A stretch of DNA of 6,769 bases. Source: a virus. Its lineage: Duplodnaviria > Heunggongvirae > Uroviricota > Caudoviricetes. The notes beneath the pieces are model-generated. The model saw only the letters and a list, made by a program, of their open reading frames with translations. It was not told the DNA's origin and ran no database searches. The stretch is from positions 1-6,769 of the IMG/VR virus record IMGVR_UViG_2690316121_000010; one strand, given 5' to 3'. The position numbers were made by a program, and so were the translations under genes. Shown one piece after another: positions 612 to 1,723 of the stretch; within the stretch, counting starts at the first letter, position 1; each line of letters begins with the position of its first letter.

Positions 612-749
612 AATGTCATCCACAAATTTTTCCCTCGTCCCATCAGCACACCGAATTTGCAGCGGCCTCACCACGCACTGTATCGGCTTTTTATCCGCAT
701 CCAGTATCACCACCTGCGTGATTACCCTGTCCTGCTCCGGAATAATGCC
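612..749. repeat. Direct repeat copy A (~140 bp); start-less relic of the 3' end of the small stf-downstream ORF
   Basis: Core 655..749 aligns to 1500..1594 at a constant offset of 845 bp with 6 mismatches in 95 bp. Weaker homology with small indels extends to ~612 (vs ~1456). In the frame matching copy B it encodes GIIPEQDRVITQVVILDADKKPIQCVVRPLQI... with a TAG immediately upstream and no ATG. Confidence 0.9.
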
Positions 750-1233
750 CTATTCGCTTGTTCTCAGAAATTGCCAGCAACCTTACACTACTTCTTTTGA
801 GCCCATTTTTCGCCAGCCCTGAATACAGGAAAGTGTTAACTGTTTTTATGTTTACCCTCATCTCACTGGCGAGATGGGACGGACGCAACTGACGGTAGAT
901 ATATCCAAACATCACCACCATCTCTGACATCGTCAGTGCCCGTGCTTTTTTGTTCCAGGTCCACAATCTGTTACGCACAGCATTATGTATATCATGTCCC
1001 CCTTTCAACGCTTCCAGATCCAGCTGAATAAAACGGCGTCCCTGAAACATGCTGCGCATTAAATGGCCCAACTGACTATCACAGATTATTAACCAGGATT
1101 CTTTACTATCCAGAATAACCCTGCGATTTTCCGGCATAAAAAATTCTTGAGCCAGAATTACACGGCATCCTTTCAGTAACAAACGCAAACCATATTCCAG
1201 ATAATAATTACGCGTCGCAAGAATGAGCTTCAT
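691..1233 (-). CDS. Putative LuxR/GerE-type HTH transcriptional regulator, 180 aa (GadE/YhiF-like small regulator; C-terminus possibly chimeric)
   Basis: ATG at 1233..1231 with GGGAAG ~8 nt upstream; TAA stop at 693..691. Residues ~100-155 (LTMSEMVVMF...LASEMRVNIKTVNTFLYSGLAKNGLKRSSVRLLA) fit the LuxR/GerE HTH pattern (LT.RE.EVL ... IA..L.IS..TV..H...I..KL.V..R). N-terminus MKLILATRNYYLEYGLRLLL is receiver-like but lacks the acidic Asp pair. The last ~19 codons (GHYSGAGQGNHAGGDTGCG) are read from repeat copy A in a shifted frame. Confidence 0.55.
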   Translation of the reverse strand: MKLILATRNYYLEYGLRLLLKGCRVILAQEFFMPENRRVILDSKESWLIICDSQLGHLMRSMFQGRRFIQLDLEALKGGHDIHNAVRNRLWTWNKKARALTMSEMVVMFGYIYRQLRPSHLASEMRVNIKTVNTFLYSGLAKNGLKRSSVRLLAISENKRIGHYSGAGQGNHAGGDTGCG

Positions 1234-1383
1234 CGCCGAACTTCCCTGAACTACAGTAGTGTTCCATGCCTCGGTCGCAATCAGAATTTATGATTCCCCC
1301 TCCAGGGAACAAGATGGACATATCACTGCTCCTTAAAGGCATCCTTCACTCCATCGTATTAACATGTTTATTACTTCACACTC

Positions 1384-1413
1384 TAATAACAAATATCCCC
1401 TATACATGACAAC
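1384..1413 (-). promoter_or_regulatory. Candidate sigma70-like promoter for the regulator gene
   Basis: Minus-strand read: TTGTCA-(17-18 nt)-TATTAG/TTATTA in the AT-rich region ~150-180 nt upstream of the regulator ATG. Weak match to consensus; speculative. Confidence 0.2.
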
Positions 1414-1414
1414 A

Positions 1415-1440
1415 AAAACCGGAGCCGGACTCCGGTTTTG
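1415..1440 (-). terminator. Rho-independent terminator ending the tail-fibre transcription unit (hairpin also readable on the plus strand)
   Basis: Perfect 6-bp stem CCGGAG/CTCCGG with 5-nt loop, extendable by flanking A:T pairs. On the minus strand it is followed by TTTTTGTTG; on the plus strand by TTTTG. Lies 14 nt downstream of the small-ORF stop and marks the switch from GC-rich tail genes to AT-rich cargo. Confidence 0.65.
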
Positions 1441-1453
1441 TGAAGCTGTCGGG

Positions 1454-1723
1454 TTACTTCATCCCGCCAATATTTTCCCACACCCCGTCAGCACGCAGGA
1501 TTTGCAGCGGTCTTACCACACACTGTATCTGCTTTTTATCTGCATCCAGTATCACCACCTGTGTGATTACCCTGTCCTGCTCCGGAATAATGCCATTCTC
1601 ATCTGACTCCAGAATGTCTGCCGGTCCCAGTCGCAGTTGTGCTGTAAGCGACTGCACGTGTTCACGGCCATCATGCTTTCCGCAACCACACAGACGCTGC
1701 ATAAGTTTTTTTAGTATATTCAT
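1454..1723 (-). CDS. Small hypothetical protein (89 aa) translationally coupled to the tail fibre gene; possible tail-fibre accessory protein
   Basis: ATG at 1723..1721 lies 1 nt after the stf TGA (TGAcATG) with AGGAG 6 nt upstream inside the stf 3' end; TAA stop at 1456..1454. The track's 102-aa version starts 13 codons earlier inside stf without RBS support. No resemblance to lambda Tfa as I recall it. Contains a CGCGKH motif. Its 3' third is source copy B of the direct repeat. Confidence 0.6.
   Translation of the reverse strand: MNILKKLMQRLCGCGKHDGREHVQSLTAQLRLGPADILESDENGIIPEQDRVITQVVILDADKKQIQCVVRPLQILRADGVWENIGGMK
1456..1594. repeat. Direct repeat copy B (inside the intact small ORF)
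   Basis: See copy A. Encodes ...GIIPEQDRVITQVVILDADKKQIQCVVRPLQILRADGVWENIGGMK-stop. Confidence 0.9.

Follow-up and report, generated by a model that had tools for sequence, protein, structure and literature searches.

Near the end of a lambdoid prophage, two same-orientation copies of part of a tail fiber domain gene form a direct repeat that is a non-functional scar and serves as a substrate for homologous deletion. One copy lies within a small open reading frame (ORF) encoding a stand-alone PfC domain, and the other is a relic of a second ORF of this kind. Taken as a whole, the account we consider very probable is that this relic was left by two non-homologous joins, that the module it belongs to (regulator, relic, and nleG leader) had a single origin, and that homologous recombination has since spread the module and deleted parts of it.

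The window, that is, the whole stretch of 6,769 nucleotides that was analyzed (Table 1), covers the end of a lambdoid prophage, with J, lom, a collagen-like stf, and the small PfC ORF, and then an exchangeable effector locus. All genes in the window are on the minus strand. A prophage of Escherichia coli ECO2947 that ends beside ibsA/yegL matches the window at 100% identity; in that genome nleA is found beyond nleG, and chromosomal genes come past nleA. The terminator predicted 3' of the small ORF (−21.2 kcal/mol, z −4.1) consists of a GC-rich hairpin followed by a U-tract, UUUUUGUUGU, and is conserved in loci L002, L003, and L004. An Rfam search of the whole window, with E values up to 1, returned no RNA family, and nothing suggests that the repeat or the terminator belongs to a described small RNA. 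The only promoter-like match in the nleG leader (587–560, minus strand) was not taken as a promoter, as its −10 hexamer (565–560) overlaps the nleG start codon (559–561).

Table 1. Positions of the features discussed in the text, in window coordinates, with sequence conservation across nine carrier loci in the last three lines
Feature	Position	Strand	Remarks
Tip attachment protein J	3770 to window end	−	
lom	3103–3702	−	
Collagen-like tail fiber (stf), 439 aa	1725–3044	−	PF08400, PF01391 collagen repeats, PF06820; PfN – coiled coil – collagen – PfC
Small ORF, 89 aa, stand-alone PfC domain	1454–1723	−	PF06820, E 9.6e-36, 122.4 bits; PGAP WP_001023457.1
Intrinsic terminator (predicted) 3' of small ORF	1405–1439	−	Hairpin 1415–1439, then U-tract
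180-aa ORF	691–1233	−	NarL/FixJ-like predicted fold; native part 750–1233
nleG leader, Shine-Dalgarno AGGGAG	562–615	−	Also present in the O103-type locus, there located after the terminator of the small ORF
nleG, 186 aa, T3SS effector, U-box E3 ligase family	1–561	−	PF06416, E 3.5e-45; PGAP CDS with the same coordinates in ECO2947
Repeat copy B	1459–1594	−	3' half of the intact small PfC ORF; repeat search and blastn
Repeat copy A	616–749	−	Internal PfC (PF06820) pseudogene fragment, about codons 46–88, lacking a start and a native stop
Junction J1	749/750 (749–752)		Regulator 3' region joined to the middle of the relic (codon 46); in-frame TAG at 750–752
Junction J2	612–630		Junction zone; about 67 nt missing relative to the O103-type arrangement
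Crossover interval, deletion event 1 (L008/L009, protein P0040)	676–684		From diagnostic sites
Crossover interval, deletion event 2 (protein P0166)	686–749		Protein-level resolution only
Leader, relic, and regulator ORF, nine loci	562–1233		98–100% identical to window
nleG segment, nine loci			100%, 83%, or 75% identical to window, or absent
Small-ORF 5' part, nine loci			90.7–98.5% identical to window

A direct-repeat search of the window paired 623–749 with 1468–1594 (127 nt, 88% identity, spacing 845), and gapped blastn of the window against itself paired 616–749 with 1459–1594 (136 columns, 87.5% identity, 156 bits, E 4e-40). The original prediction, made from the sequence alone, had described a direct repeat flanking the regulator gene with a core (655–749/1500–1594) of about 94% identity at an offset of 845 bp. 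The core is confirmed, with 89 of 95 positions identical (93.7%). The repeat itself is real as well, but its extent needs correction to 134–136 nt, and its two edges are of different kinds, with an abrupt end at 749/750 and a gradual fading at 612–630. In 100 dinucleotide-preserving shuffles of the window, the top direct self-match scored at most 30.7 bits (mean 25.2), so that the similarity of the two segments is far above chance. With this score difference, and with the same arrangement present in complete genomes (in 80 of the 5,426 complete E. coli genomes, 80% or more of window positions 1–1800 is present) and in deposited Stx1a phage genomes, we see virtually no prospect that the repeat is a chance similarity or an assembly artifact.

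The repeat is a partial gene duplication, in which copy B lies inside an intact gene, of which it forms the 3' end as predicted, whereas copy A is truncated and non-functional. The match of copy A to PF06820 (E 1.4e-8, 35.4 bits, cut-off 25) covers only profile positions 30–58 of 64. Directly upstream of copy A, at 750–752, is an in-frame TAG, and the copy A frame contains no ATG and only an internal GTG; it runs to a TAA at 552–554, thereby overlapping the nleG ATG at 559–561 (ATGCCATTAA). These findings agree with the earlier description of copy A as a relic that has no start, has an in-frame TAG just upstream, and has a stop overlapping the start of nleG. The automated annotation of ECO2947 by PGAP likewise labels window positions 630–749 as [quoted passage not shown]. 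In addition to the truncation, copy A has substitutions and a 2-nt gap, which blastn places at 612–630. Position 685 is occupied by different bases in different relics, the relic bases being derived relative to the base of the intact ORF.

In the collagen-like tail fiber EPclA, PfC is the C-terminal trimerization domain (PMC3368898). The fiber encoded in the window has the EPclA architecture, and both repeat copies relate to this domain, copy B by lying inside a full PfC domain and copy A by encoding the internal part given above. The difference from EPclA is that the repeated gene is a separate 89-aa ORF located after the fiber gene.

Codon differences between the two copies are unevenly distributed. 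The first 32 codons contain six synonymous differences and one non-synonymous difference, and the last 10 codons contain one synonymous and six non-synonymous differences. Moreover, copy A is closer to the small ORF of the O103 locus (91.2% identity) than to copy B of its own locus (87.5%). This codon pattern and the closeness to O103 imply that most of the divergence arose while both copies were functional genes in different phages. Judged by its sequence, copy A is thus a fragment of a second, allelic, once-functional small PfC ORF and not a local duplicate of copy B.

The two junctions that bound the relic indicate how it may have come to its present place. At J1, identity per 10-nt block drops at position 750 from 10/10 to 4/10. 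Beyond 749, 10 of 20 bases still match copy B, which is microhomology at best, or chance. Because similarity is lost so abruptly, with microhomology of a few bases at most, J1 was probably formed by illegitimate rather than homologous joining. The original prediction had ascribed the arrangement to homologous recombination between related prophages; this part holds for the spread of the module and for its deletion, but not for the join at J1 that created the duplication.

J2 can be read against the effector locus of O103:H2 strain 129 (L002), which is located at the torT site. There, the small ORF with its stop is followed by a terminator, a short spacer, the nleG leader, and nleG, without the regulator and without the relic. 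What the window and the other relic-bearing loci lack at J2 is the small-ORF stop with the codons just before it, the hairpin of the terminator, and some of the spacer. Since the relic lost its own stop at J2, the open frame that reaches the nleG start is read-through, and the overlap between the relic stop and the nleG start is not a designed coupling. J1 and J2 are both identical in the window, OkiPb01675 (L005), phage 2B8 (L006), and O55:H7 DEC5D (L004). No relic-free close allele of the regulator was found, and no intermediate consisting of the regulator, a relic with intact stop and terminator, and nleG was seen.

From these junctions the following history is very probable. A second small PfC ORF, with its stop and terminator, would once have preceded the nleG leader and nleG without any gene in between, and the order in O103:H2 strain 129 would resemble the state before the scar formed. 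At J1, the 3' end of a regulator-carrying cargo region would have been joined to the middle of this second small ORF, and at J2 the stop and terminator of the latter would have been removed with the loss of about 67 nt. The resulting regulator–relic–leader module had a single origin and then moved among tail fiber and effector backgrounds via flanking homology.

The distribution of the module agrees with such a history. Carriers have the prophage at different chromosomal sites (ibsA/yegL and torT), and the arrangement is also found in phage 2B8. Nine carrier loci were compared with the window segment by segment (Table 1, last three lines). The conserved core at 562–1233 and the variable flanks fit a single origin of the scar, and hence of the module, followed by homologous exchange in the flanks.

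The gene carried by the module was labeled a regulator in the original prediction. The 180-aa ORF has no significant match to Pfam (E up to 10), NCBIfam, or PDB profiles, with EvgA at E 0.14 and GerE at E 0.47, neither of which is significant. PGAP does not call the ORF and annotates pseudogene fragments only. An AlphaFold2 model has an overall pLDDT of 80, with values of about 71–95 per 10-residue block for residues 1–150, and a Foldseek search with this model retrieved EvgA, RcsB, FixJ, and spr1814 with probabilities of 0.97–0.99. The predicted fold resembles that of NarL/FixJ response regulators in combining a receiver-like α/β domain with a four-helix LuxR-type helix–turn–helix. The ORF differs from these regulators in that it lacks a Pfam or NCBIfam match, has no acidic pair after strand 1, and is confined to E. 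coli (39 homologues, all E. coli); D52, a candidate phospho-acceptor at the end of strand 3, is invariant among the homologues. We also considered PsrA and PsrB, which belong to the AraC family (PMC10877973), and rejected this assignment, as no AraC profile matches the ORF and the predicted fold is of the LuxR type. The other island-encoded regulators reviewed in the same paper were rejected as well. The name “regulator” is thus a reasonable reading of the predicted NarL/FixJ-like fold and does not denote a known regulator.

The last 19 codons of the 180-aa ORF (691–749) are read out of frame from the relic. The conserved core of the family ends near residue 154, after which the tails are variable in length and unrelated to each other, and the relic-encoded tail of the present ORF (residues 155–180) is disordered in the AlphaFold2 model (pLDDT 31–46). 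These observations bear on the question whether expression, as the C-terminal tail of the regulator (out of frame) or as a 53–64-aa protein translationally coupled to nleG, is what has kept copy A in place. The extension of the regulator ORF into the relic would agree with such expression, as would the relic frame, which has no stop for 53 codons and closes at the nleG start and from which gene callers predict proteins of 58–69 aa on hundreds of contigs. Nevertheless, we regard expression as a very unlikely reason for the persistence of copy A, given the unrelated and disordered tails, the absence of an ATG from the relic frame, the mostly non-synonymous differences from intact alleles in the last 10 codons, and the variation between relics at position 685. 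The reading we prefer remains that copy A is a decaying gene fragment.

According to the original prediction, recombination between the two copies would delete the regulator gene and the terminator and place nleG behind the small ORF. We used the in-silico product of recombination between copy A and copy B as a query in a large protein collection, and the top match to this hybrid was a 108-aa protein (P0040) with 100% coverage. P0040 is encoded in two loci (L008 and L009) with the order stf, hybrid small ORF, nleG (overlapping the hybrid), espJ, and torT. L008 was compared with UTME-3 (L010), a window-type locus at torT. On the copy B side, the two are identical over 386 nt, up to position 528 of L008; on the copy A side, they are identical over 2,782 nt, from position 520 of L008. 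At three diagnostic sites (L008 positions 463, 504, and 519), L008 has the copy B base, and from 529 on it has the copy A base. In window coordinates, L008 is copy B-like up to 685 and copy A-like from 675 on. By this comparison, L008 is the UTME-3 locus after loss of the 845-bp unit through a single crossover within 9 nt (676–684).

The polarity could in principle be the reverse, with the 108-aa ORF of the L008 type being ancestral and the window type having arisen by insertion of a small-ORF 3' end, terminator, and regulator. Such a course requires fewer events on paper (a 67-nt deletion leading from the O103 type to the L008 type, then one illegitimate join), and at window position 685 L008 has the base of the intact ORF whereas the relics have derived bases. 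However, the differences between L008 and the UTME-3 relic are strongly clustered, with three sites in 57 nt and then none over the whole identical stretch on the copy A side. At these three sites, L008 has the bases of UTME-3 copy B, and the sequence upstream is identical to UTME-3, too. This pattern indicates a single crossover from copy B to copy A rather than an ancestor, and, together with a second product that has a different switch point, it leads us to consider the reverse polarity very unlikely.

This second product, P0166 (ENZ6391823.1 and EOV4196753.1; four contigs), is also 108 aa long and is identical to the in-silico deletion product of the window itself. It has the copy A state at 685, KKP, fused to the small-ORF N-terminus of the window. 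Since P0166 carries the KKP of the relic, its crossover must lie to the right of 685, and P0166 probably represents a second deletion event, seen at the protein level only. The other cluster members listed (58–69 aa) are ORFs called from the relic itself. Among the 5,426 complete genomes, queried with both the in-silico product and L008, the deleted form was absent, the full-coverage matches listed being all of the undeleted, two-piece type, which implies that the deletion is rare.

Natural variants thus exist that are exactly one repeat unit apart and whose crossover falls within the repeat, and the predicted deletion has occurred in nature. Both kinds of variant that the original prediction proposed to look for exist, that is, loci without the 845-bp unit and loci with other gene content. 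Apart from the homologous origin of the repeat, discussed above, its interpretation is largely supported. A RecA-type homologous deletion would remove 845 bp comprising the terminator, the regulator ORF, and one repeat copy, and would fuse the small ORF to the read-through tail of the relic, which overlaps the nleG start. We infer that the deletion is RecA-dependent and that it may affect nleG expression. In the window type, there is no terminator between the regulator ORF and nleG; in the deleted type, nleG would be coupled to the late tail operon.

The crossovers also bear on whether the repeats are functional, att-like or cassette sites at which a site-specific recombinase moves the regulator cassette. 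Small-ORF relics do recur at cargo boundaries in many effector loci, and phage integration at att sites in effector loci is known for other sequences (PMC8112680). Against this stand the two natural crossovers, which fall in different intervals (676–684 and 686–749), the presence of at least four different left breakpoints among relics, and the substitutions, gap, and truncation of copy A, which are typical of decay; the window contains no recombinase gene. Neither a fixed crossover point nor an associated recombinase was thus found, and we consider site-specific movement highly improbable, even more so than retention through expression. Homologous recombination between the copies of a passive scar remains our preferred explanation for the deletions.

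To place the scar among related loci, a conserved 20-mer from the repeat was used to retrieve 120 IMG/VR loci. Partial small-ORF copies in these loci show at least four different left breakpoints (small-ORF nt 130, 153–155, 167, and 199). Relics spanning nt 167–269, with terminator and spacer intact, have a first nleG on one side and a second nleG or nleB on the other; their left junction is constant while the downstream cargo differs. Relics spanning nt 199–270 plus the terminator adjoin an integrase pseudogene upstream of nleH1-2. The protein search, in turn, yielded numerous variants of the small ORF whose 3' ends are aberrant, as well as one in-frame fusion of the small ORF to NleG. Recombination boundaries in these loci thus often fall at the 3' end of the small ORF and its terminator, and the present scar is one instance.

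The term exchangeable effector locus (EEL) reportedly goes back to Tobe et al. in 2006, as cited in PMC8112680. It applies to cargo after the tail fiber genes of lambda-like prophages (PMC8112680), and the order J, lom, stf, small ORF, and cargo puts the present locus in this position. Like the EELs of enterohemorrhagic and enteropathogenic E. coli (EHEC/EPEC) lambdoid prophages, it is located directly downstream of the tail fiber genes at the prophage end, and it carries T3SS effector cargo (nleG here, with nleA beyond it in ECO2947) whose content differs between related prophages. The nleG alleles are 75–100% identical or absent, and related loci carry espM2, nleH1-2, espJ, and nleA. The att-site-mediated phage integration documented inside effector loci concerns other sequences (PMC8112680). 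The papers that could be searched describe the loci and the integration of prophages into prophages at att sites. They mention neither cargo boundaries formed by partial small PfC ORFs nor a repeat-bounded deletion of 845 bp, which sets the present locus apart from the EELs described there.

Mosaicism in lambdoid phages includes cargo units located after the late-operon terminator, shifts in identity at module edges, and relics of illegitimate joins. The present locus shares with such mosaic boundaries and moron-type cargo the placement of a cargo unit behind the late-operon terminator and the sharp transitions in identity. It differs in that the scar is a same-orientation partial gene duplicate that makes the locus unstable, and in that deletion derivatives were found directly.

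A wider role for the small ORF can be put forward tentatively, although we think it rather less likely than likely to hold: the 3' end of the small PfC ORF, with the terminator and about 35 nt of spacer, may act as a recurrent upstream homology arm for stacking and swapping cassettes, with deletion in addition rewiring nleG. If so, each relic would mark one accretion event, and the relics of an effector locus would tell in what steps it was assembled. The 845-bp deletion would then move nleG from a place behind a NarL-like regulator into translational coupling with the late tail operon.

That this position of the prophage has mosaic boundaries and pseudogene relics and exchanges its cargo is already established, and the relic had been flagged by PGAP. 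The current understanding of phage mosaicism is unchanged, and the deletion is an ordinary consequence of prophage mosaicism. For annotation, the findings mean that the “proteins” of 53–69 aa called from relics are pseudogene read-through and that what is called a 108-aa “tail fiber C-terminal domain” protein is a deletion hybrid. In strain typing, regulator-plus and regulator-minus variants could be told apart by PCR across 600–1600. For the prophages themselves, the locus provides a base-resolved example of how the effector loci of pathogenic E. coli assemble and lose genes, in which a partial copy of a tail fiber domain gene marks the join of two cargo regions and, at the same time, destabilizes the locus.

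The small open reading frame (ORF) that follows the tail fibre gene encodes a stand-alone PfC (PF06820) trimerisation domain and begins 1 nt past the stop of the tail fibre gene, which lies upstream and already has a terminal PfC domain of its own. About 740 of the 5,426 complete E. coli genomes have a match to window positions 1-1800, mostly at the small PfC ORF, with a median of 11 matching places per genome among these. Two direct-repeat families inside the tail fibre gene, D1 and D3, correspond to the Gly-X-Y repeats of its collagen part and to coiled-coil repeats rich in alanine and serine, and are unrelated to the repeat shared by the small ORF and its relic, a partial pseudogene copy.

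Features of the window and of the compared loci
Feature	Position	Strand	Loci or extent
180-aa ORF	window 691-1233	-	family with 39 homologues, E. coli only
Stand-alone PfC ORF	window 1454-1723	-	
Tail fibre gene	window 1725-3044	-	
Direct-repeat families D1 and D3	window 1963-2261 and 2350-2628		
Decayed regulator copy	L003 2900-3290		O157:H7 TW14359 Stx2a prophage (L003); also about 120 Stx2a phage records
Second relic class	about 0.8-2.1 kb downstream of intact small ORF		IMG/VR loci L015, L016, L047, L097, L110, L111, L087
Third relic class	L004 841-980		O55:H7 DEC5D (L004); also L041, L093; small-ORF nt 199-270 plus terminator

Two further classes of small-ORF relic were found in the compared loci. 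The second class spans nt 167-269 of the small ORF (153-269 in L087) at 82-85% identity, with terminator and spacer intact, and sits 3' of a first nleG gene and 5' of either a second nleG or nleB. Its left junction is constant, and the cargo downstream varies. The third class directly adjoins a tyrosine-integrase pseudogene, with nleH1-2 downstream, and looks like the remnant of a prophage-into-prophage junction.

Likeness to the window breaks off at window 551 in phage 2B8 (L006, about 2998-3010), directly past the start codon of nleG, and at window 512 in DEC5D (L004 3001); these end points are additional cargo breakpoints, at the nleG start or inside nleG. Strain TB4019 (NZ_AP038817.1, hit H2) carries a window-type locus with 99.1% identity that is split by an IS3-family element, the match being 3,137 bp long against the 1,800-bp query.

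Many small-ORF protein variants (P0052, P0053, P0058, P0060, P0062, P0085, P0105, and P0131) have aberrant C-termini, in which the small ORF is fused either to sequence read through the terminator or to the 3' region of the regulator; in P0131, of 105 aa, the small ORF is fused in frame to NleG. Part of these variants may be assembly or sequencing errors.

In Stx2a phages, the 180-aa ORF, the putative regulator, is present as a decayed copy 3' of the small PfC ORF. This version keeps only window 991-1172 and 1338-1800, and the C-terminal half of its regulator copy is a different allele from that of the window.

The 180-aa ORF is not among the genes called by PGAP, and neither Pfam nor NCBIfam has a model for its family. 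The protein is predicted to fold like a response regulator of the NarL/FixJ type, with likenesses to EvgA, RcsB, and FixJ. D52 is invariant in the family, and no acidic pair follows strand 1. The predicted fold makes the ORF a candidate for an uncharacterised prophage regulator that adjoins type III secretion system effectors.
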